This document shows positions 1-10,978 of a stretch of DNA of 64,000 nt, piece by piece. Position 1 is the stretch's first letter. Every line of letters begins with the position of its first letter. The position numbers were made by a program, and so were the translations under genes. The stretch lies in IMG/VR virus record IMGVR_UViG_3300023179_000040, positions 1 to 64,000 of that record. One strand, written 5' to 3'. The notes under the pieces were generated by a model that was not told the origin of the DNA, did not search any database, and saw only the letters and a program-made list of their open reading frames with translations. The DNA is from a virus.

Positions 1-200
1 GCAACAGCCCGATCACGCTGGGAACGAATCTTACGCATTATACGCAAAAAAGTTTCGTCTGTCAACTCTTCGATAGCCTTCGCCTTGATTGTGACAGGGA
101 CATTATAAAATTGAGGATCCTCAGTGATAGCAACAGTATTTACTACTAAATTATAGATATCTTCATAAACCTTATCACTATCAGTCTTAGCCAATTTCAT
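1..200 (-). CDS. Early hypothetical protein (partial, runs off window start)
   Basis: ATG at 200-198 overlaps the stop of the upstream ORF (TAATG). Frame MKLAKTDSDKVYEDIYNLVVNTVAITEDPQF... stays open to the window edge. Confidence 0.6.
   Translation of the reverse strand, partial: MKLAKTDSDKVYEDIYNLVVNTVAITEDPQFYNVPVTIKAKAIEELTDETFLRIMRKIRSQRDRAV
37..65 (-). promoter_or_regulatory. sigma70-type promoter (perfect consensus)
   Basis: Reverse complement reads TTGACA-N17-TATAAT. It lies inside the partial ORF and points out of the window. Confidence 0.65.
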
Positions 201-358
201 TATTCCACCTCAAAGATTTCATAAATCCCACACTTAGGACTCATACCATTCTCATCAAAATCCTTCTCTTGACGAACCCACTCCCTAGCATCTTCTATAT
301 CGTCAAAATCAAAGGTCGTACTTGACCCATTTTCAGTTCTAATCACACGATAGACCAT
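200..358 (-). CDS. Small early hypothetical protein (MVYRVIRTENG...)
   Basis: Track ORF 200..409 begins inside the promoter. The ATG at 358 has an AGAGAGGT RBS. Confidence 0.7.
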   Translation of the reverse strand: MVYRVIRTENGSSTTFDFDDIEDAREWVRQEKDFDENGMSPKCGIYEIFEVE

Positions 359-380
359 ACAGACCTCTCTTTCTGCACCA

Positions 381-409
381 ATCATATCATAATAAGGACT
401 ACTTGTCAA
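381..409 (-). promoter_or_regulatory. sigma70-type early promoter
   Basis: TTGACA-N17-TATGAT on the minus strand, upstream of ATG 358. Confidence 0.7.
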
Positions 410-457
410 GACCCTCTATTCTGGCTGACTATCGCCCATTACCGCAAATCCGTAGGA

Positions 458-619
458 TTAGGAAGGACAGACCACTCGTTCCACCAAAATATACTTACCG
501 TATTTTTCTTGTGCTTTTCTCAGAGCGTCAATTTCGCTCATGGCAACTACATATCCCACGAACCGGTTGTTCTGGAAAACTCGCCACGAAATACCCGAAT
601 AACAAAATGCAGTATTCAT
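458..619 (-). CDS. Small early hypothetical protein, probably leaderless
   Basis: MNTAFCYSG... The ATG at 619 lies 6 nt downstream of the -10 box (626-631) and has no RBS. Confidence 0.6.
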   Translation of the reverse strand: MNTAFCYSGISWRVFQNNRFVGYVVAMSEIDALRKAQEKYGKYILVERVVCPS

Positions 620-625
620 AGAGTT

Positions 626-752
626 ATTGTACCCTATTATCGGCAAGAGTCAAGAGAAAACTTTAGATTGTTCGTAAAGTATTGAGACATAAGGAGTTAG
701 ATCAAATTTTCGGGCGCTCCCTAGCCCTAAGTGCTGCCGTAGCAACAACTTA
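626..752 (-). promoter_or_regulatory. Composite early element A (promoter plus twin 25-bp palindromic boxes)
   Basis: TTGACT-CTTGCCGATAATAGGG-TACAAT (653-626). Boxes at 675-699 (TAA AGTA TTG AGACA TAA GGAG TTA) and 728-752 (TAA GTGC TGC CGTAG CAA CAAC TTA), 53 bp apart. Confidence 0.85.
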
Positions 753-782
753 GGGTGAGGGTTTCGACCGACAATCAAATTT

Positions 783-1190
783 TTAGAGAACCATTGCAGC
801 CACAGTACGGAACAGATGGTTGCTCAGTGGAAGCCTACGCACATTCCGAGTCCGTTCTGCGTAGAAGTTGCGGATACTACCATCCGTCATTTCGCACGTA
901 ACAAGATGCTTGGTACGCTTGAAGTTTGGATCATTAGCACGATACCGACTGCGAGCATTGAGTCTACGAATCTGGAAATCATCCAGCGTATACACAGGCT
1001 CAATAACCTTAGCAAGAACACGCTCCGGATCACCATGATACGGTTGTTCGTATTCAAAATTATATACTTCGCCAACCTTTGCAGAAGCCAGCGAACCAGC
1101 CACACCACGCAATGAATTGAAGACCATATACGTGATAGCAGTAACCAGACCAACGACAGCAACCAGACCAAAAATCATTTCATTCGACAT
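783..1190 (-). CDS. Membrane-anchored protein with possible WYL/SH3-like domain
   Basis: ATG 1190 with GAAAGGG RBS. N-terminal hydrophobic helix (MIFGLVAVVGLVTAITYMVF). The F.Y...G...R...HLVTCE...SIRNFYAER pattern resembles WYL. Confidence 0.55.
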   Translation of the reverse strand: MSNEMIFGLVAVVGLVTAITYMVFNSLRGVAGSLASAKVGEVYNFEYEQPYHGDPERVLAKVIEPVYTLDDFQIRRLNARSRYRANDPNFKRTKHLVTCEMTDGSIRNFYAERTRNVRRLPLSNHLFRTVAAMVL

Positions 1191-1232
1191 AAAAACCCTT
1201 TCAGTTAGAAAACCCTCAATCAACATACCACA

Positions 1233-1261
1233 AGTCTACAGTAAGTATCGACAAAAGTCAA
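1233..1261 (-). promoter_or_regulatory. sigma70-type early promoter with CGAT spacer motif (no twin boxes)
   Basis: TTGACT-TTTGTCGATACTTACTG-TAGACT. Confidence 0.75.
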
Positions 1262-1545
1262 GAGCGGACTTGAGAAAAATTTTCTTCCCAGAAACCTTGC
1301 AATTCCGTCAGGCTCACGGCACTATCATTCCACGCCACACCATCGGGAGTCTGGAATGCGATAGGACGGTACACAGATGAAATTTTGCCAGCATGAAATT
1401 CTTCTACGGTATTCACTTCCTTCAAAGTTTCAGTGAACGAACCGTAATCGCCACAATGGGCCGCAAGTTCATTCAGACCTTCATCATTACTAATCCACAG
1501 GCAAACGTTCCATGTCTCGTAATTAGCGTAACCGTTGTAACTCAT
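1258..1545 (-). CDS. Conserved phage hypothetical protein (YNGYANYETWNVCLWISND motif)
   Basis: Own promoter and GGGAG RBS. The NGxxNYETW..xLWxxND motif recurs in phage early proteins (recalled, not searched). Confidence 0.75.
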   Translation of the reverse strand: MSYNGYANYETWNVCLWISNDEGLNELAAHCGDYGSFTETLKEVNTVEEFHAGKISSVYRPIAFQTPDGVAWNDSAVSLTELQGFWEENFSQVRS

Positions 1546-1569
1546 GATTCTCCCTTTCGTGATACTCTA

Positions 1570-1705
1570 ATCGTATCATACTTATCGGAACAAGTCAAGA
1601 AAAATCTTTAGAAAAATTTTTTAGACGTAAAGTGTTTATACATAAGGACTTACGACGAACCCGGCGCCGCCCGCTCGCCCTAAGTGCTTACGCAGTAAGG
1701 GTTTG
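1570..1705 (-). promoter_or_regulatory. Composite early element B
   Basis: TTGACT-TGTTCCGATAAGTATGA-TACGAT (1598-1570). Boxes at 1628-1652 and 1681-1705, 53 bp apart. Confidence 0.85.
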
Positions 1706-1714
1706 CGGTAGGTT

Positions 1715-2008
1715 TTATTCGAAGTCTACGAAAATAACCTGATGGTATCCTCGCGGCTTAATGGTCAGGCTATCACCATAATCGTATGTATCAGCCTTTA
1801 CACCAGTCATACCCGCCAGAAACTTGGCCTTTCGTACAATGTTACGCTGAGACGCTTCGCTATTAATAGCAAACTCGTAACGATTAGCCCAAGAGTAGTT
1901 AGCCTCACCACCAAACGTATCGGTCTGCGTAACGGTAACCTTCATCATCTTATTATTCCTATTAGTAAAGTAACTGTTGATCCAATTTTTGATATGTTCA
2001 GTTTTCAT
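1715..2008 (-). CDS. Early hypothetical protein (TDTFGGEANYSW motif)
   Basis: ORF coupled to the upstream gene by a TGATG overlap. Its stop lies 10 nt from box 2 of element B. Confidence 0.7.
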   Translation of the reverse strand: MKTEHIKNWINSYFTNRNNKMMKVTVTQTDTFGGEANYSWANRYEFAINSEASQRNIVRKAKFLAGMTGVKADTYDYGDSLTIKPRGYHQVIFVDFE

Positions 2009-2262
2009 CAGTAATCATCACCCGATTCATAGTGTTCATAGTATTCATCAACACCCCATCCGCAGGAACCGAATGCAGATTCAGCATCCCCATCCATACT
2101 ATCATCATACGAATCATCCCAAGATTCATCGGTCGTTTCCTCATTCGTATCTTCATAAAAGTCATTGTAATCATCATAGTTCAACGCATCAACATCATCG
2201 GCGTAGTTCATATCATCCTCATAAGCGTTATCGGGATCGAACAAGGGATCGGGGTGACTCAT
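2008..2262 (-). CDS. Extremely acidic protein, candidate DNA mimic
   Basis: 84 aa with no Lys or Arg, very rich in Asp/Glu/Tyr. AAGGAG RBS. Confidence 0.65.
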   Translation of the reverse strand: MSHPDPLFDPDNAYEDDMNYADDVDALNYDDYNDFYEDTNEETTDESWDDSYDDSMDGDAESAFGSCGWGVDEYYEHYESGDDY

Positions 2263-2285
2263 TTAGTTTCTCCTTTTATCTAATC

Positions 2286-2468
2286 CTACCACACCAAATC
2301 GTTCGCGTCAAGAGGCTCGGGATACATTTCATCCCACAAGCCCGTAACTTCTGCATAATCAAACGGACTGCAATCGCTAGCGTCAATCGGCTCGGCCATA
2401 GGTTCAAGAATGTTGTTCTCGGCCATCTCGTTCAGAATCCGGTTTATTTCATCAAGATCGTGCAGCAT
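2286..2468 (-). CDS. Small acidic early protein
   Basis: AAGGAG RBS, directly downstream of element C promoter. Confidence 0.7.
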   Translation of the reverse strand: MLHDLDEINRILNEMAENNILEPMAEPIDASDCSPFDYAEVTGLWDEMYPEPLDANDLVW

Positions 2469-2493
2469 GATCTTTTCTCCTTGTGATGCTCTG

Positions 2494-2638
2494 AGTCTAC
2501 ACTAATTATCGACCATGTCAAGCCCTCTCTATAGAAAATCTCTAAAAAAATTTTTTTCTGTAAGTCTATGCTAGATAAGCACTTACGTCGCGGCGGGCGG
2601 CGCGGCCTTGCTCTAAGTCTTTTAGAGTCAAGGCTTTA
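2494..2638 (-). promoter_or_regulatory. Composite early element C
   Basis: TTGACA-TGGTCGATAATTAGTG-TAGACT (2521-2494). Boxes at 2561-2585 and 2614-2638, 53 bp apart, with a very GC-rich spacer. Confidence 0.85.
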
Positions 2639-2640
2639 CG

Positions 2641-2949
2641 TCAACCCACAACCATACCATCCATAAACGGATAGGATTTGTCGTTGATTTTCACGAACCA
2701 TTCGAAATTCTTTTGATAAACATAACGCGGGCTATACTGATTAATCCGATCCTTAGTGGTCAAGGTTTGCCAGCCACCACTATTCAGCGTATATGTACCA
2801 TCCTCATGAATCTTTACCACATAGGTACTGTGCAGCATAATCCCTACACTACCATCATGGAGAATTTCAGCGTAAGTATTATTACCAACCTTGCGACGAT
2901 TGGCATTACGCTTGCCACGAACCATACTAACCGCTTCGGAATGATTCAT
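2641..2949 (-). CDS. Conserved phage hypothetical protein (LNSGGWQTLTTKDRIN motif)
   Basis: 102-aa ORF with TAATG coupling. Its stop is 2 nt from box 2 of element C. Confidence 0.75.
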   Translation of the reverse strand: MNHSEAVSMVRGKRNANRRKVGNNTYAEILHDGSVGIMLHSTYVVKIHEDGTYTLNSGGWQTLTTKDRINQYSPRYVYQKNFEWFVKINDKSYPFMDGMVVG

Positions 2950-3098
2950 TACTTAGTTTCCTTTTTCTTGGACTCAACCATCTCACGATACAGATTTTCC
3001 AGAAATCGAACCTGAGCCAACGCACGACCAGTTTCTTGCTTCATGCGAGTTTGGGTCTTTTGGTACTCGCTAACCGGCTTTCTCTTGGTTTTCATCAT
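2949..3098 (-). CDS. Small basic early protein (MMKTKRKP...)
   Basis: ATG 3098 with AGGAG RBS. The track start at 3143 is the -35 box. Confidence 0.65.
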   Translation of the reverse strand: MMKTKRKPVSEYQKTQTRMKQETGRALAQVRFLENLYREMVESKKKETK

Positions 3099-3114
3099 CT
3101 TTCTCCTGCGATTG

Positions 3115-3253
3115 ATTCTACAGTATAGATCGGCAAGAGTCAAATATAATCTTTAGAAGATTTTTATTTTGTTCCTAAGTCGTTGATATATAAGGAGTTA
3201 CGTCAAATTTTGCGGCGCAAATTTTCCCTAAGTGCTTATGCACCAAGGGTTTG
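3115..3253 (-). promoter_or_regulatory. Composite early element D
   Basis: TTGACT-CTTGCCGATCTATACTG-TAGAAT (3143-3115). Boxes at 3176-3200 (TAA GTCG TTG ATATA TAA GGAG TTA) and 3229-3253, 53 bp apart. Confidence 0.85.
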
Positions 3254-3396
3254 CGTCTCTTTTCGCCATCTCTTTTTCAACTTTTTTGCAAGATGCTTGA
3301 TTCGATTCATGATAGCAGCCCGCTGTAACGGATGCTGCACAGTGGACAAACGTATCTGTTCGATTCGCAGGATATCTTGAAGTACTCGTGTTTTCA

Positions 3397-3768
3397 TCAC
3401 TCGCCTTTCCAAGCAAACGGGGAAACTTCCTCACCACAAGCCAGAATCGCAGCGTATTGAGAAGCCAAAGCCTCTTTACGCTCTTGTGAACCCGGCTTGC
3501 CAACCTTTACGATCATGGTGTCATCACCACCCACAAATCGAGGATCGACGTTTTCCTTCTTACGCTTTCCGAGATTCTTGAGAGCCTTACGGTTGAACTT
3601 CAACACCTTTTCGCTCACAACGTAGCGACCATGATCCTGTACACCGTACACATAGTCCACATCTTCCACAACTCTCGAGTCAGGAACCGGAACCACCATG
3701 GGAATAGCGATTCCTTTGAAGACCATACGGGCTTGACGCTTTGCATTTTCGATAATCGGAAACTTCAT
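3397..3768 (-). CDS. Early hypothetical protein (MKFPIIENAK...)
   Basis: ATG 3768 with GGAGAAAG RBS, downstream of the promoter at 3795-3823. Confidence 0.7.
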   Translation of the reverse strand: MKFPIIENAKRQARMVFKGIAIPMVVPVPDSRVVEDVDYVYGVQDHGRYVVSEKVLKFNRKALKNLGKRKKENVDPRFVGGDDTMIVKVGKPGSQERKEALASQYAAILACGEEVSPFAWKGE

Positions 3769-3794
3769 TTTTCTTTCTCCTGTTGAGTGATGGT

Positions 3795-3823
3795 ATTCTA
3801 GCAAAATTTCAGGAAGCGGTCAA
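3795..3823 (-). promoter_or_regulatory. sigma70-type promoter
   Basis: TTGACC-N17-TAGAAT. Confidence 0.6.
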
Positions 3824-4045
3824 CTCCATTTCCTCGATCATTTCCGTGAACGGAATCATCCTGGAAACGAGCGTCTGCTCAGTATTGTCATCATGGAAGA
3901 ACGTTTGAACACTACCATTGTCTAGATACACAGTGAGTTGGTATCCACACGGAGCAGCAAACCCGCCATTTGCACGGGAAACACGCATATCCTTTTCTCC
4001 TAGGAATCGGACAACAACTTTTTCAACCATTTCTTTGGTAATCAT
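3809..4045 (-). CDS. Early hypothetical protein
   Basis: 78-aa ORF directly downstream of the element E promoter, with a purine-rich RBS. Confidence 0.7.
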   Translation of the reverse strand: MITKEMVEKVVVRFLGEKDMRVSRANGGFAAPCGYQLTVYLDNGSVQTFFHDDNTEQTLVSRMIPFTEMIEEMELTAS

Positions 4046-4069
4046 GTCTTTCTCTCTTTCTTATGAGCA

Positions 4070-4270
4070 ATTCTACCATAATCATCGGCAAAAGTCAAGC
4101 ATAATCTTTAGGAAATTTTTAAGTCCTTATTTTTCAATACTTTACGTCAAGTGCGGTCAAAATGGACACTTGGAATCGCGAGAAATCGATCATAAACCAT
4201 TGTCAGATAAAGAGTTACGTCAAATTTTGCGGCGCCGCCTTGTCATAAGTGCTTAAACAGCAAGGCTTTG
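4070..4270 (-). promoter_or_regulatory. Composite early element E (three boxes)
   Basis: TTGACT-TTTGCCGATGATTATGG-TAGAAT (4098-4070). Boxes at 4120-4144, 4193-4217 and 4246-4270 (73 and 53 bp steps). Confidence 0.85.
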
Positions 4271-4272
4271 CG

Positions 4273-4350
4273 TCAACTATTTACAATCCATGCCGCTATA
4301 CATCCGATCACAAATGAACAAAACAACACAACCCTTTCACTCTTCGTCAT
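4273..4350 (-). CDS. 25-aa membrane peptide
   Basis: MTKSERVVLFCSFVIGCIAAWIVNS*, hand-translated. Stop is 2 nt from element E box. Confidence 0.45.
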   Translation of the reverse strand: MTKSERVVLFCSFVIGCIAAWIVNS

Positions 4351-4462
4351 GTTTTCTATAATCCTTTGATGGATAAACCAAATCGGACACAAACCAACTA
4401 CAAGTAATACCAACAACAAAACCCACCATCATCCAAAACCATTCTATATTAATATCGGCCAT
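4337..4462 (-). CDS. 41-aa membrane peptide
   Basis: MADINIEWFWMMVGFVVGITCSWFVSDLVYPSKDYRKHDEE*, hand-translated. Confidence 0.5.
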   Translation of the reverse strand: MADINIEWFWMMVGFVVGITCSWFVSDLVYPSKDYRKHDEE

Positions 4463-4480
4463 CCCTAGCCACTTTCTTAA

Positions 4481-4573
4481 TTAAATATCTTCAGCCACAC
4501 GCAAAAGAGCCATTATAATACCACCAATAATGATAATTGGTATAAAGCATATAATGATCATAACTCCGATCAT
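4481..4573 (-). CDS. 30-aa membrane peptide
   Basis: MIGVMIIICFIPIIIIGGIIMALLRVAEDI*, with an ATGA overlap on the upstream stop. Confidence 0.5.
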   Translation of the reverse strand: MIGVMIIICFIPIIIIGGIIMALLRVAEDI

Positions 4574-4770
4574 ACAGCCCTCAACTCTTCTAAAGAAACA
4601 GTACGAACATACTTCTTATTCTCATCAACTTCATATACAGAGCAATCATACTGGAATAACAAAGTATTGCGGATATCTCTTTCCCAAACAACCTTTGCTT
4701 CAGCAATAGTATCGTAAAGTCTATAGTCCTGAATGAAACCATCAAACGCTAATGCAAACTTATTCATCAT
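4570..4770 (-). CDS. Early hypothetical protein (MMNKFALAF...)
   Basis: ATG 4770 with AGGAG RBS; within track ORF 4570..4803. Confidence 0.65.
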   Translation of the reverse strand: MMNKFALAFDGFIQDYRLYDTIAEAKVVWERDIRNTLLFQYDCSVYEVDENKKYVRTVSLEELRAV

Positions 4771-4777
4771 GTTACTC

Positions 4778-4933
4778 CTAACCAAACATCTCATATTCTT
4801 CATCGGTCAACACTACTTCATCTGGACGATAGCAGTTGTTACCATATAAATCACGATTCTTAGGACGCTTTTCCCATTCATCCATAAACCGATTATACTC
4901 TTCAATCCTACGCAGTTCTTCATCACCTTTCAC
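4778..4933 (-). CDS. 51-aa acidic early protein
   Basis: GTG start after a GAGAGA RBS: VKGDEELRRIEEYNRFMDEWEKRPKNRDLYGNNCYRPDEVVLTDEEYEMFG*. First gene after the element F promoter. Confidence 0.55.
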   Translation of the reverse strand: MKGDEELRRIEEYNRFMDEWEKRPKNRDLYGNNCYRPDEVVLTDEEYEMFG

Positions 4934-4961
4934 TCTCTCTTTCTCTACTTCTTATATCGGT

Positions 4962-5100
4962 ATTTTAGCAGACAATACTTTAGCTGTCAAGCGGAAAATT
5001 TCCTTTCAATGCTGTTAGGCTGTAAGGTCTTGCTGCATAATGAGTTACGTCAAATTTTGCGGCGCCAATCCGCTTTAAGTCTTTGCCCTATAAGAGTTTA
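4962..5100 (-). promoter_or_regulatory. Composite early element F
   Basis: TTGACA-N17-TAAAAT (4990-4962). Boxes at 5023-5047 and 5076-5100, 53 bp apart. Confidence 0.8.
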
Positions 5101-5107
5101 TAAATAC

Positions 5108-5257
5108 TTAGAGAATCGTACCATCACCACGAATCCGATACATGATACCACCGATACTGTACAGATAGATACCCTCGCCCATATTACGCACAAACGTGGC
5201 CGAATAACCGTGGCGAGCAACTAACCGGCGAACAACGTTTTGAACTTGAATGGTCAT
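5108..5257 (-). CDS. 49-aa early protein
   Basis: MTIQVQNVVRRLVARHGYSATFVRNMGEGIYLYSIGGIMYRIRGDGTIL*, with AAAGGA RBS. Lies between elements G and F. Confidence 0.65.
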   Translation of the reverse strand: MTIQVQNVVRRLVARHGYSATFVRNMGEGIYLYSIGGIMYRIRGDGTIL

Positions 5258-5287
5258 TTCTTTTTCCTTTTCCCTTGTGATGCTCTT

Positions 5288-5425
5288 ATTCTACAGATAT
5301 TTATCGGCAAGTCAATAGGGTATCCATAAATTTTTTTAGATTTTCTATAAATCCTTATCCATACAGCACTTACATCAAATTTTTGGTAGCAAATACGATC
5401 CAAGTCTTTGCTATATAAGTACTTA
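5288..5425 (-). promoter_or_regulatory. Composite early element G
   Basis: TTGACT-TGCCGATAAATATCTG-TAGAAT (5315-5288). Boxes at 5348-5372 and 5401-5425, 53 bp apart. Confidence 0.8.
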
Positions 5426-5543
5426 GGGGGTTTTTTTGTTTAACTTGCCCATTTTAACATTTTTCCAAAAATCGCAAGGAGATACAGAAATAGTAAGGAC
5501 ACTTTTATTGAAAATGTACTAGCTAAACTTCTCTATTAGCGCA

Positions 5544-6260
5544 TTAATTATCCCAGAAATATTCTTTTCCATCAGGTCCTATATGCCAAGGTTCTTTTTT
5601 TTCTCCGTCTCTTAAAAATCCATAAAACACGACACGTTGTTTCTTTATAAAATCTACAAATGTCATATCAAACGGCATTTGGCCATTAGTAATTTTATGC
5701 AATATGCATAGCTCCGCCAATTCCGTATCACTATACTTCATATAGTTGACTCTTAAAAACTCTCGAAACTCTATACCATATATAGAATCCTCACTTAACC
5801 TTCTAAGGGTTTGTTCGGGTTGTAGGCCGCCCCTATATAAGCCCCAACGAAATCTCATAGTTGTTAATCTGTCAGGAGTTAATTCTGCATCAAATTTTAT
5901 ATTTATAAGATGACATAGCTCCGCATCAATATATTGATCTAGATGTTTTTCTATAAATTGATATATAGGATCTTGAGTATAGCTTTGATCTTTTAATATA
6001 GGCTGTGGACTACCTAGCCTATAAATAACACTGTCTCTAACTGAAATATTAAATTTTGTTAAACATAATTCTTGAATTTGATTTTTATTATGAGTATCTA
6101 AAAGCCCCACAATAAAATCTTTAATAGTCTTATCATATATATTTTTACCACTACGTTCTCTGATAATATGATTATATTTTTCTCTTAAATTTAACTCTTT
6201 TTCCCAGTAATATACAGGGCTATTAGCTATAGGATATTTCCAACCAAATATCTCTGACAA
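5544..6260 (-). CDS. Helical-repeat (HTH-like) protein, possibly the frameshifted C-terminus of the upstream endonuclease
   Basis: TTG start overlapping the upstream gene. Repeated D.EL.(H/E)L...K(F/I) units. Confidence 0.5.
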   Translation of the reverse strand: MSEIFGWKYPIANSPVYYWEKELNLREKYNHIIRERSGKNIYDKTIKDFIVGLLDTHNKNQIQELCLTKFNISVRDSVIYRLGSPQPILKDQSYTQDPIYQFIEKHLDQYIDAELCHLINIKFDAELTPDRLTTMRFRWGLYRGGLQPEQTLRRLSEDSIYGIEFREFLRVNYMKYSDTELAELCILHKITNGQMPFDMTFVDFIKKQRVVFYGFLRDGEKKEPWHIGPDGKEYFWDN

Positions 6261-7207
6261 TTTTTGAATATCCCCATATGCTCAACCCACTCATTCTCAA
6301 ACAACACAGGAAAATCGCCCCTTTTATCTAGAGCATTATCCCTATGGCTCCCACTCGCTAAATGATCAGGATTATAACACTTTTTGTTATTGCATAAATG
6401 TCTGATTAATTCAGGATATTCTCCATGTTTTTCCCAGTATGCTATACGATGTTTGTTTAATGTTTTGGTTACATTGTTTTCTGTTATTTTTATGCGTCCA
6501 TAGCCACTTTTATGTACACAAATACTTTCTTTACAAGGAGTGTTGTTATATATACTATTATGATTCAAATGATAATTAGTATTATATCCAGGCATAGACA
6601 ATGCTTTAATTAACCATGGCTCTATATCATCTTTTTTTATTGGTTTCCATGTGTTTAATAAACTAGAGCTAGCCCACTTATTCAGATAGTGAGACTCTCT
6701 TTGCATAATTGCTTTTTCTTCACACTTTTCAATAATAGCGTACTTAACTGTATAGCTCGAATCATTATAGAATTGTTGTAATTGTTGATTATAATGATTA
6801 TTACTTATTAAATCTTTCTGATGATATCTTAATCTATCCCCAATACTAACACTACTACCAATATAAACTCGAATATCATTCATTAATTTATGCTTATTTG
6901 AGTTATGTATATCATATTTCCACGTAAAATATATTGCGTATATACCACTAATATCCTTAATTTTGCTAAAATTTTCGGATTCGATAGTTTCCCACAACGA
7001 TATTTGACTGGGATCTATTACGCTTTCGGTATTTCTACGTTTTTTTAGAGAGCTTAAACTACTTTTAGTAATATTATATTTTTTTAATATGTCACTAGAA
7101 TTCATTCCGTTTTTATAATCTTGAATTAATTCTCTTTCTTGACATCCATTTAATATAACTTTTATTTTACGTTTTTTAGTATCTATACTACCTTTGGGTC
7201 TTGGCAT
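6227..7207 (-). CDS. Homing endonuclease with both GIY-YIG and HNH domains
   Basis: SGIYAIY...VYIGSS...RLRYH...NHYNQQLQ (GIY-YIG), then GYGRI...HRIAY...IRHLCNNKKCYNPDHL...N (HNH). N-terminal PRPKG plus HTH. Confidence 0.8.
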   Translation of the reverse strand: MPRPKGSIDTKKRKIKVILNGCQERELIQDYKNGMNSSDILKKYNITKSSLSSLKKRRNTESVIDPSQISLWETIESENFSKIKDISGIYAIYFTWKYDIHNSNKHKLMNDIRVYIGSSVSIGDRLRYHQKDLISNNHYNQQLQQFYNDSSYTVKYAIIEKCEEKAIMQRESHYLNKWASSSLLNTWKPIKKDDIEPWLIKALSMPGYNTNYHLNHNSIYNNTPCKESICVHKSGYGRIKITENNVTKTLNKHRIAYWEKHGEYPELIRHLCNNKKCYNPDHLASGSHRDNALDKRGDFPVLFENEWVEHMGIFKNCQRYLVGNIL

Positions 7208-7230
7208 TGTAAGTTCTGTTTATATAGTAA

Positions 7231-7268
7231 ACAACAAAAGGCAAGGGCCATCAAAGACCCCGCCCTTG
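7231..7268 (-). terminator. Probable intrinsic terminator
   Basis: Reverse complement CAAGGGC...GCCCTTG hairpin followed by a U-rich tail, after the 7290 gene. Confidence 0.4.
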
Positions 7269-7289
7269 TTGATAAGACATAGTAATATT

Positions 7290-7505
7290 TTATAGAGACG
7301 AGATATTAGTAGTAGTAACTTTTTTCGGTCGCCCTCTACTTTTCTTTAATGCTAACTTGCGTCGTTGACGTCTTACCATAGCAATAGTAATATTTTGACC
7401 AGTCATTTGAGCTAGCTCCTTGGCTAAACTTTCATCATTCATACTCCCATGATTATTGCTGATAAATTCTACTTCTGTTGCTGTCCATTTTTTATAATTA
7501 GCCAT
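7290..7505 (-). CDS. Small HTH DNA-binding protein with C-terminal AT-hook
   Basis: MANYKKWTATEVEFI...LAKEL...VRRQRRKL...KSRGRPKK, with GGAAGGGA RBS. Confidence 0.7.
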   Translation of the reverse strand: MANYKKWTATEVEFISNNHGSMNDESLAKELAQMTGQNITIAMVRRQRRKLALKKSRGRPKKVTTTNISSL

Positions 7506-7625
7506 ATTTCCCTTCCTCTTTGCATAATATAAAGTTGTCAATAGTCATCTATCACCAGATATTGACTAAAATTCATTCGACCTTATTATATTAGGTATTG
7601 GTTAGTTTCATGCAAGGAGATTTTT

Positions 7626-7784
7626 ATGAATATTACTAATTTAAATTTGGCTAATTCATCATTACAAGTTAATCCCTCAGGATGTGACGCTAATATTTGT
7701 CACGACCTGAATTTACCAGACGGCAAAAGTATAGCCGAATTACTACAAGAATCACAGAATGAGCAAAAAGAAGAAACCAACTAA
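7626..7784 (+). CDS. 52-aa hypothetical protein
   Basis: AAGGAGA RBS; MNITNLNLANSSLQVNPSGCDANICHDLNLPDGKSIAELLQESQNEQKEETN*. Downstream of TTGACT-N16-TATTAT (7562-7589). Confidence 0.55.
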   Translation: MNITNLNLANSSLQVNPSGCDANICHDLNLPDGKSIAELLQESQNEQKEETN

Positions 7785-8433
7785 ACAAACAATATTACCC
7801 AATAATGTTTCCGAAGAGGAATTTTTGACCGTTTTAGATAATATTAGCAAAAGATTAAGCCACAAATTCCGCTTTGGTTACCATGATCTAGATGACATGA
7901 AGCAACAAGCTGCTATTTTTGCTATGGAGGGCTTAGAAAAATATGACAATAAAAGACCTCTTGAAAATTTCTTATGGACTCATGTGAGAAATCGTCTCTT
8001 TAATTACAAAAGAAACAATTACCAAAGACCAGACAAGCCTTGTTTATCCTGTCCATTTTTTGACAAACATTGTTTCAAATCTAATAATCAGTGTACAGAA
8101 TATGCTAATAAATTAGACTGTGAACTATACGCAGGATGGTCACAAAGAAATGATGCTAAAAAAAATATTATGCAGCCATTATATATTGAACCAGAGAATA
8201 ATTATTCTAATCTACAGTCCGACAACTTTGTGCAAAATATACAAAATCAAGAAATTATAACCTATTTGGACTCTAATGTTTCCGCAGAATATAGAGAGTG
8301 TTATCTTAAGTTAAAACATAATGTTAAAATTCCTAAACAGCAATTGTTAAATTTACAAAAACACATTTACTCCCTTTTAGAAAAATCACAATGGCATCAG
8401 CTAATGAAGCTCCAAAAAAACGAGGACAATTAA
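7759..8433 (+). CDS. Phage RNA polymerase sigma-factor-like protein (ECF-like region 2 plus Cys cluster)
   Basis: DLDDMKQQAAIFAMEGLEKYD...ENFLWTHVRNRLFNYKR matches sigma region 2. It is followed by CxxC...C...C...C. Region 4 appears degenerate. Confidence 0.7.
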   Translation: MSKKKKPTKQTILPNNVSEEEFLTVLDNISKRLSHKFRFGYHDLDDMKQQAAIFAMEGLEKYDNKRPLENFLWTHVRNRLFNYKRNNYQRPDKPCLSCPFFDKHCFKSNNQCTEYANKLDCELYAGWSQRNDAKKNIMQPLYIEPENNYSNLQSDNFVQNIQNQEIITYLDSNVSAEYRECYLKLKHNVKIPKQQLLNLQKHIYSLLEKSQWHQLMKLQKNEDN

Positions 8434-10498: not shown

Positions 10499-10978
10499 AT
10501 GAAATCTCCAGACTTTACTATTATAGTAGATACCAGAGAGCAGCATCCATGGTCTTTTGATAATTACGCTACAGCCAAGCGTAAATTAGATACCGGAGAC
10601 TATAGCATAGAAGGTTTAGAGCATCTATTAGGCATAGAAAGAAAGAAAAGCGTTAGTGAATTTGCCAATAATATTGTGGAAGAAAGATTTACTGATGTAG
10701 TTGATAGATTAAGCAAGTTAAAATATTCTTATATCCTATTTGAGTTTAGTTTAAATGATGTTTTAATTTATCCTGTAGGATCAAATATTCCTAAGAAGTG
10801 GTGGAACAATATTAAAATAAGTCCATCATTTATTATTAAACATATTTTAGAATTGGAAATGATACATAATATTAAAATTATTTTTTGTGGATCGGCCGCT
10901 AATGCAGAGAAGATGGCGGAACACATATTAAAAAAGGTTAACTATATTGAAAGAGTTAAAAACCAAACAACTATTTGA
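10499..10978 (+). CDS. ERCC4 (XPF/Mus81-type) domain nuclease
   Basis: IIVDTREQ...LDTGDYS...IERK motif (GDxnERK). Confidence 0.85.
   Translation: MKSPDFTIIVDTREQHPWSFDNYATAKRKLDTGDYSIEGLEHLLGIERKKSVSEFANNIVEERFTDVVDRLSKLKYSYILFEFSLNDVLIYPVGSNIPKKWWNNIKISPSFIIKHILELEMIHNIKIIFCGSAANAEKMAEHILKKVNYIERVKNQTTI

Follow-up and report, generated by a model that had tools for sequence, protein, structure and literature searches.

Why should a virus carry one and the same rigid DNA module, copy after copy, between its small early genes? The question is raised by the window analysed here, a stretch of 64,000 nucleotides that forms bases 1-64,000 of a linear 106,612-bp IMG/VR record (IMGVR_UViG_3300023179_000040, G000 below; CheckV completeness 71%) and begins with small minus-strand genes that fill positions 1-5,450. 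Seven copies of a 92-nt element, named A to G, lie among these genes. The best-supported reading, which we favour with moderate confidence, is that the element is a regulatory nucleoprotein site: a twin-box module in duplex DNA that would act on the early promoters. The element is also a cassette-shuffling junction between related phages.

On the gene strand, every copy is built alike. The upstream gene ends in its stop codon, after which come Box2, 28 bp of spacer, Box1, a tract of A-runs and T-runs similar to an UP element, the -35 and -10 hexamers, a Shine-Dalgarno sequence and the next gene. The seven minus-strand copies align over 92 nt with zero gaps (nhmmer E 6e-15 to 1e-22). Their orientation relative to the genes is constant (7/7), as it is for all 17 copies, found between 16.9 and 35.6 kb, in a complete relative of 223,302 bp, G001, which is collinear with the window's record at 72-87% nucleotide identity. 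The whole 92-nt element matches its own reverse complement, and the longest run identical among copies, 22 nt in the spacer, is common to D, E and F. The accompanying core promoters (-35 TTGACW, 16-17 bp, -10 TAnnnT, with TAGAAT in four of the seven) score 9-11 of 12, each with an A/T tract. The original prediction, a reading of this DNA that preceded our analysis, had every coordinate of the array right, including the box starts, the 53-bp step between boxes in each copy and a third box in E, 73 bp from Box1; the gaps it gave between the -35 and the nearest box (21, 29, 39, 32, 21, 32 and 32 bp) are likewise correct, and in B, C, E and F Box2 does lie close to the stop codon before it (2-9 nt). 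The array lies far above chance: the pattern YAA-N4-TTR-N5-YAA-N4-TTR occurs 10 times in the 64 kb, always within 675-5425, against 0.46 occurrences expected from shuffles. A profile built from the seven copies detected no eighth copy in the whole 106.6-kb record, the one extra match being the third box of E. The positions of all these parts are collected in Table 1. Two further features of the promoters may be recorded here. Most early promoters (626-653, 1570-1598, 3115-3143, 4070-4098 and 5288-5315) carry a (C)CGATA motif between -35 and -10; in a second class, represented by the promoter of F (4962-4990) and by many promoters of relatives, CGATATAAG just past the -10 takes the place of that motif.

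Table 1. Element copies, their promoters and a pair of divergent genes in the window
Feature	Position	Strand	Details	Basis
Element A	670-761	-	Box1 675-699, Box2 728-752, spacer between	Profile alignment
Promoter of A	626-653	-	TTGACT-16-TACAAT; A/T tract between promoter and Box1	
Element B	1623-1714	-	Box1 1628-1652, Box2 1681-1705; homology to G001 switches in spacer (about 1665)	
Promoter of B	1570-1598	-	TTGACT-17-TACGAT; preceded by A6T5 UP-like tract	
Element C	2556-2647	-	Box1 2561-2585, Box2 2614-2638; TTGACG of the element contains the stop codon of gene 2641-2949	
Promoter of C	2494-2521	-	TTGACA-16-TAGACT	
Element D	3171-3262	-	Box1 3176-3200, Box2 3229-3253	
Promoter of D	3115-3143	-	TTGACT-17-TAGAAT	
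Element E	4188-4279	-	Box1 4193-4217, Box2 4246-4270	
Third box of E	4120-4148	-	73 bp from Box1; kept in G001	
Promoter of E	4070-4098	-	TTGACT-17-TAGAAT	
Element F	5018-5109	-	Box1 5023-5047, Box2 5076-5100	
Promoter of F	4962-4990	-	TTGACA-17-TAAAAT; class with CGATATAAG after -10	
Element G	5343-5434	-	Box1 5348-5372, Box2 5401-5425; most diverged copy, first in the leftward array	
Promoter of G	5288-5315	-	TTGACT-16-TAGAAT	
Candidate ligand gene	7290-7505	-	71-aa three-helix helix-turn-helix (HTH) protein with RRQRRKL and AT-hook RGRP	Inferred role only
Phage sigma-70-family factor gene	7759-8433	+	Divergent from candidate ligand gene; conserved in 20 contigs	

The rigidity of the element is not peculiar to this record. 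Its family was gathered with a short pattern of spacer plus Box1 and later with a twin-box pattern, yielding well over a hundred IMG/VR stretches, many of them from 180-240-kb contigs, and copies were counted over 1.6 Mb of these related loci. There are 675 near-full copies (579 unique), 656 of which have no net indel. Spacing was measured with a single-box profile that itself assumes no spacing, and 396 of 409 unique neighbouring box pairs proved to be exactly 53 bp apart, the others falling at 49-55 bp. The distance holds even though the sequence of the spacer differs, being AT-rich in one type and GC-rich in another. Copies within one genome are 60-78% alike, and orthologues are closer to one another than paralogues. 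A large clade of uncultured phages shares the element, which is real and departs strongly from randomness.

What has been conserved within the boxes points to letters and not to folding. On the gene strand, the consensus of Box2 is gaCgTAAacCCTTg...c.tAAggACTTAgGgC, that of the spacer G.gccgc.aaATTt (partly conserved, GnGCCGC-AAATTT) and that of Box1 GaCGTAAgT.CTTATg...cAAcgacTTACg. The AA/TT dinucleotides at columns 11-12/32-33 and 64-65/85-86 are invariant in 103/103 copies, and those at columns 17-18/26-27 and 70-71/79-80 are kept in 88-99 of the 103; in the middles of the arms mismatches prevail, and compensating changes never occur. Among 50 diverse copies, 70.6% of cells pair, compared with 71.4 ± 0.5% when the 3' letters are shuffled, and the covariation score does not exceed that of column shuffles. 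RNAalifold returned zero consensus pairs on either strand, and mutual information was confined to neighbouring columns, with none at long range. The box folds are weak (-8.5 and -5.4 kcal/mol, where shuffled sequences give -4.4 and -3.5) and alike on the two strands. No U-tract follows the boxes, a terminator scan of the gene strand was empty at them, and Rfam 15 gave no match up to E = 1 over positions 1-8000. The phage does employ ordinary terminators where it has need of them, since a canonical hairpin-plus-U terminator follows another leftward gene, at 7244-7261 (-). Fixed AA/TT letters, symmetric half-sites and rigid spacing, with no selected pairing, are the signature of a putative protein-recognition site in duplex DNA. 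We read the element as such a site, not as an RNA hairpin or terminator, because its conservation lies in fixed dinucleotides and it has neither pairing, covariation nor a U-tract. An N4-type hairpin promoter was also considered and dropped; the spacer hairpin is confined to the AT-type spacer.

The position of the module relative to the promoter is constrained as well. The distance from the centre of Box1 to the first base of the -35 was taken for the 262 unique copies that have a strong sigma70-type promoter no more than 80 nt away. Its distribution has three sharp maxima (32-34, 43-44 and 53-55 bp) separated by deep troughs, and after related copies are merged 67 of 83 clusters still fall in 32-34, 42-45 or 52-55 bp. 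The corresponding distances in the window, from A to G, are 34, 42, 52, 45, 34 (measured for E from its third box), 45 and 45 bp. With about 10.3 bp between the classes, the box presents an unchanging side of the helix to the promoter; it lies near -68, -78 or -89, immediately upstream of the UP-like tract. Activators of the class I type and phased architectural proteins are placed likewise. Such a placement speaks for a ligand that would act on RNA polymerase or on the course of the DNA around the enzyme.

These features suggest the following model. Each box is an inverted pair of half-sites of about 10 bp (TAAGsAsTTA type, with invariant AA-N4-TT ... AA-N4-TT), and the two boxes stand exactly 53 bp, or five helical turns, apart around the partly conserved spacer. 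A sequence-specific protein, probably encoded by the phage, would occupy the four half-sites and bridge both boxes on one face of the DNA, so that next to each early sigma70-type promoter a fixed complex forms, directly upstream of the UP-like A/T tract, with the centre of Box1 near the three positions given above and Box2 another 53 bp upstream. Its constant helical register with the -35 would let this complex act on RNA polymerase, either by contact with the C-terminal domain of the alpha subunit or by wrapping the DNA, and would switch the whole early gene set together. As to the sign of regulation, we lean towards a timed shut-off or retuning. As a by-product, a repeat of about 90 bp at each cassette boundary would offer a preferred crossover point to the homologous recombination of the phage, and promoter-plus-gene units could be gained, lost and re-ordered between relatives, as with the PeSL elements of phage T4.

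The best candidate for the ligand may be the HTH and AT-hook protein of 71 aa encoded at the head of the array (Table 1). Clustering of all open reading frames (ORFs) of element-bearing loci found its gene in 21 element-bearing contigs, always at the head of the leftward array and divergent from the sigma factor gene; in the window it has a terminator of its own, the canonical one described above. Invariant in the protein are W7, RRQRRKL and the RGR core of the AT-hook, with RGRP in 8 of 12 aligned members. Its predicted model contains three helices (pLDDT 83, core above 90) and resembles mostly DNA-binding helical domains, among them Myb/TRF2, the SNAPc Myb repeats, the GcrA DNA-binding domain (TM 0.82 on the target) and the HTH of small terminases. 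All Foldseek E-values are above 1, so this fold assignment is tentative; a profile search against the PDB gave nothing significant, and Pfam yielded only sub-threshold matches to AT_hook and transcription-factor families. On conservation, position and predicted fold, it is the most plausible phage-encoded ligand of the boxes. The anatomy of the element, its invariant spacing, the phasing, the mosaic junctions and the lack of selected pairing are observed; protein binding, the identity of the ligand and an effect on transcription are inferred.

Several observations weigh against this regulatory model. Seven of the 11 strong leftward promoters within 1-5450 carry the element, and four (37-65, 381-409, 1233-1261 and 3795-3823) do without it. 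The copies counted are a mixture of paralogues and orthologues, so that the counts are not fully independent, and the phasing could in part come from indels of A-tract units of about 10 bp. Domains of the Myb and GcrA type usually bind as monomers. Finally, the twin box precedes a different core-promoter-like motif in other relatives. In clade members such as L049 (5190-9450), L043, L029, L015 and L032, GCAAAnnnnGTGCCA follows it at a fixed distance, and some 20 nt further on comes TGGCAYG-N4-TTGC, which agrees perfectly with the sigma54 -24/-12 consensus and is present in both orientations; a CCTTAC-N6-GTAAGG hairpin and a second class of sigma70-type promoter come next. None of this is present in the window's 106-kb record. 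The twin box is thus a portable module that can stand upstream of more than one kind of core promoter, and given this portability it could belong to the end of the upstream gene, or to the junction itself, instead of the promoter.

Could the ligand be a protein of the host? In the leading alternative, which we consider unlikely, an architectural protein similar to IHF, HU or Fis would sit on the boxes and bend the DNA upstream of the UP element. The original prediction had proposed a phased nucleoprotein enhancer or silencer that co-opts a host IHF/HU-like protein. Its nucleoprotein half has become the better-supported branch, through sequence-specific conservation, fixed spacing, the absence of covariation and the helical phasing of 83 clusters; its choice of ligand is unsupported. 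YAA-N4-TTR is indeed the IHF consensus core and is kept in all four half-sites, phasing with the promoter suits a bend-dependent activator (the Fis sites upstream of rrnB P1 are an example of bend-dependent activation), and early promoters have to fire before phage proteins exist. An IHF site, however, consists of WATCAANNNNTTR plus a flanking A/T tract and is asymmetric, extending over about 35 bp, whereas here two inverted cores 15 bp apart form a symmetric, overlapping arrangement in which the WAT prefix of IHF falls on columns of about zero information. No HU or IHF gene is present in the window's record or in the complete G001. A scan of 185,579 species genomes found the twin box in no isolate genome and in only seven stretches, on six freshwater contigs of metagenome-assembled genomes. 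The taxonomy of these six contigs is inconsistent (unrelated phyla), so they give no clue to the host; most simply, they are mis-binned phage contigs.

The second part of the original prediction, that an integron-like attachment site turns promoter-plus-gene units into shufflable cassettes, is likewise supported in part: the outcome is borne out and the mechanism is not. Compared with G001, the window has 1074-1664 where the relative has 1.3 kb with two extra elements, with homology taken up again in the spacer of element B, near column 50; likewise 4774-5359 is replaced by 2.5 kb with two elements, homology resuming within element G. Over all contig pairs, homology breakpoints pile up at the element: alignments over the upstream gene mostly end at columns 70-100, those over the downstream gene mostly begin at columns -20 to +10, and only eight cross the element with both sides. 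Ending at the edges of the element is the pattern expected of exchange inside a repeat common to all cassettes. Logan contigs from three studies break up the early region at the elements and contain chimeric elements joined in register. One chimera (1663>2605, three runs) joins Box1 of B to Box2 of C with 8 variant letters between them, and another (3210>1668, two runs) joins Box1 of D back to Box2 of B with 5 letters between. The latter, backward joint could be a circle, a duplication or the gene order of another phage. The chimeras rest on short metagenome contigs, some perhaps from sister phages, and thus show alternative neighbourhoods, not a mechanism.

Should these junctions then be ascribed to a site-specific recombination site, attC-like or res-like, of an unrecognised recombinase, the cassettes being truly mobile? 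We regard this as decidedly unlikely, in spite of several likenesses. Two inverted-repeat protein sites surround a central spacer, and the centres of sites I and II of Tn3/gamma-delta res are also 53 bp apart; all three localisable crossovers (3/3) lie in the spacer and in register, one of them backward as a circle or duplication would be, and cassette content differs between relatives at the element, just as res and integron attC sites bound cassettes. Against this, the window's record and the complete G001 both lack Phage_integrase (PF00589) and Resolvase (PF00239) domains, and the element has two boxes, or three with another spacing in E, not the three subsites of res. An attC site is an imperfect hairpin of variable length recognised by its structure and bearing RYYYAAC/GTTRRRY cores; here the length is fixed at 92 nt, both cores are missing from the consensus, and pairing is not selected. 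Orthologues are more alike than paralogues, and the order of G000 and G001 is largely collinear. The 22-nt identical run in the spacers of D, E and F would draw homologous crossovers there in any case, and the RuvB-like and ERCC4 genes of the clade would serve homologous exchange. Homologous recombination between repeats, as for the PeSLs of T4, is enough to explain the junctions and the economical explanation; we prefer it because the clade has these two genes and no site-specific recombinase.

The PeSLs are the closest known system, and they also frame the next alternative, that the boxes work in RNA, as a terminator or attenuator of the PeSL type or as hairpins for RNase processing or stabilisation at the 3' end of the upstream gene. 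Like the present element, the PeSL of T4-type phages combines a palindromic part, an AT-rich tract and a consensus sigma70 early promoter, recurs among small orphan early genes, and marks insertion, deletion and replacement junctions between related phages through in-register recombination between copies (PMC2839356, PMC4122927). Recombination between flanking copies yields small circles, and the palindrome is a single GC-rich stem-loop that was shown to terminate transcription (PMC2839356, PMC4122927). The position of the boxes, after a stop codon and before an A/T tract and promoter, is that of the T4 PeSL stem-loop (PMC2839356). This position, the presence of the module ahead of two different promoter types and the somewhat better folding of the boxes than of shuffles would suit a role in RNA, which we nevertheless judge improbable: RNAalifold pairs no columns on either strand, pairing does not exceed column shuffles and lacks compensatory changes, the mean fold reaches only -5 to -8.5 kcal/mol with neither U-tract nor Rfam match, and an invariant 53-nt spacing is unexpected of independent hairpins. 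Where the PeSL has one stem-loop, the present element has two boxes, rich in mismatches yet conserved in sequence, which keep an unvarying distance of 53 bp and are in helical phase with the promoter, and its phage is unrelated to T4, with a distant terminase. It is PeSL-like in architecture and evolutionary role, a new variant with a twin operator-like module; it is not filed as a member of the PeSLs, because the terminator stem-loop that defines them was tested for and not found.

A dual-purpose site is a further idea. A small phage protein, such as the product of 7290-7505, would synapse the boxes of different cassettes, catalyse in-register exchange of cassettes in the spacer together with the RuvB-like and ERCC4 enzymes, and co-regulate the early promoters. 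We think this quite improbable; if true, it would amount to integron-like gene shuffling without an integrase. Very improbable, in our view, is a twin box that serves as the upstream activator sequence of an enhancer-binding protein for sigma54-type promoters and is re-used here. In many relatives the -24/-12 motif does lie at a fixed distance, which puts Box1 and Box2 near -76 and -129, typical positions of enhancers. That motif is nowhere in the window's record, however, and the promoters here and in G001 are of the sigma70 type; no Sigma54_activat protein occurs in the window's record or in G001, where the single weak AAA+ match is RuvB; and in the relatives the two orientations of the motif make up a long inverted repeat, an unusual arrangement for promoters. 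Hardly credible is a selfish element resembling a miniature inverted-repeat transposable element that spread into intergenic gaps, for although the element is about 92 bp long, intergenic, present in many copies and a match to its own reverse complement, its orientation relative to the genes is constant, its place between stop codon and promoter is fixed, and its copies within a genome are old (60-78% alike), orthologues being closer.

Two further known systems come close to the element. Paired sites five turns apart are known from the tandem CRP sites, 52-53 bp apart, at CytR-regulated promoters and from the p4 sites of phi29, where function depends on the helix face. These share with the present module two dyad sites on one face of the DNA, about five turns apart, upstream of a sigma70 promoter and with a conserved stretch between them; they differ in that there is no sequence likeness and that the module here lies upstream of an UP-like tract and at many promoters of one phage. 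Strong promoters of the rrnB P1 type consist of a consensus core, an UP element and phased Fis sites upstream, and the early promoters described here resemble them, with an UP-like A/T tract distal to a consensus core and, beyond that tract, phased putative protein sites. Their boxes do not fit the Fis consensus and differ in spacing and symmetry. An intrinsic terminator, for its part, has the GC-rich hairpin and U-tract that the boxes lack. Integron attC, res, sigma54 enhancer and terminator each fail at least one defining feature as a class for this element.

The phage itself stands far from those in culture. Megablast and blastn searches of the region and the element against 50,697 GenBank phage records returned zero matches, and the terminase is about 24% identical to those of Bacillus and Microcystis phages, no cultured phage being close. 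Public runs that contain the window are lake and freshwater metagenomes. According to the map of G001, the contig of the window ends inside the early region. A plus-strand block starts at 7,759 and encodes the sigma-70-family factor, a GDP-mannose dehydratase, an ERCC4 nuclease, the large terminase, the portal and a 4,021-aa ORF. Two early proteins match the Pfam families Kyano_Gp96 (a cyanomyovirus protein; gene 2641-2949, minus strand) and DUF7249 (gene 1258-1545, minus strand). The HIP1 octamer (GCGATCGC) is absent from the window's record, and a HIP1-rich cyanobacterial host is therefore unsupported despite these matches.

Some neighbouring features are of interest in their own right. The G+C content is 43% in 1-5,450 and 31-38% in the remainder of the phage. 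Between the early array and the HTH gene lies a low-GC segment, 5529-7305, of 1,777 bp in the window against 177 bp in G001 (about 1.6 kb net), which carries an ORF (5544-6260) and an HNH endonuclease gene (6227-7207) that are both missing from G001; it looks like a homing-endonuclease insertion. The ERCC4-domain nuclease gene lies at 10499-10978 (+) in the window and the gene for the RuvB-like Holliday-junction helicase at L059:814-1719 in G001, a possible recombination toolkit of the clade. The early array of G001 (20.0-22.7 kb; L057:13-235, 2502-2652) includes five tRNA genes (Asn, Gln, Thr, Asp and Arg), and one twin box in that genome begins immediately after the 3' end of a tRNA.

Early host take-over regions are the least understood and fastest-changing parts of the genomes of large phages. 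By marking almost every early cassette with a rigid, promoter-phased module, the clade of uncultured freshwater giant phages described here offers a handle for finding the regulator that times early transcription, a way to define the early regulon in metagenomic phages that cannot be cultured and a way to study the natural exchange of promoter-plus-gene units. The PeSL principle, that regulatory repeats serve as points of shuffling, would thereby reach beyond the T4-like phages, and the palindromic part of a PeSL-like junction may be a protein site instead of a terminator.

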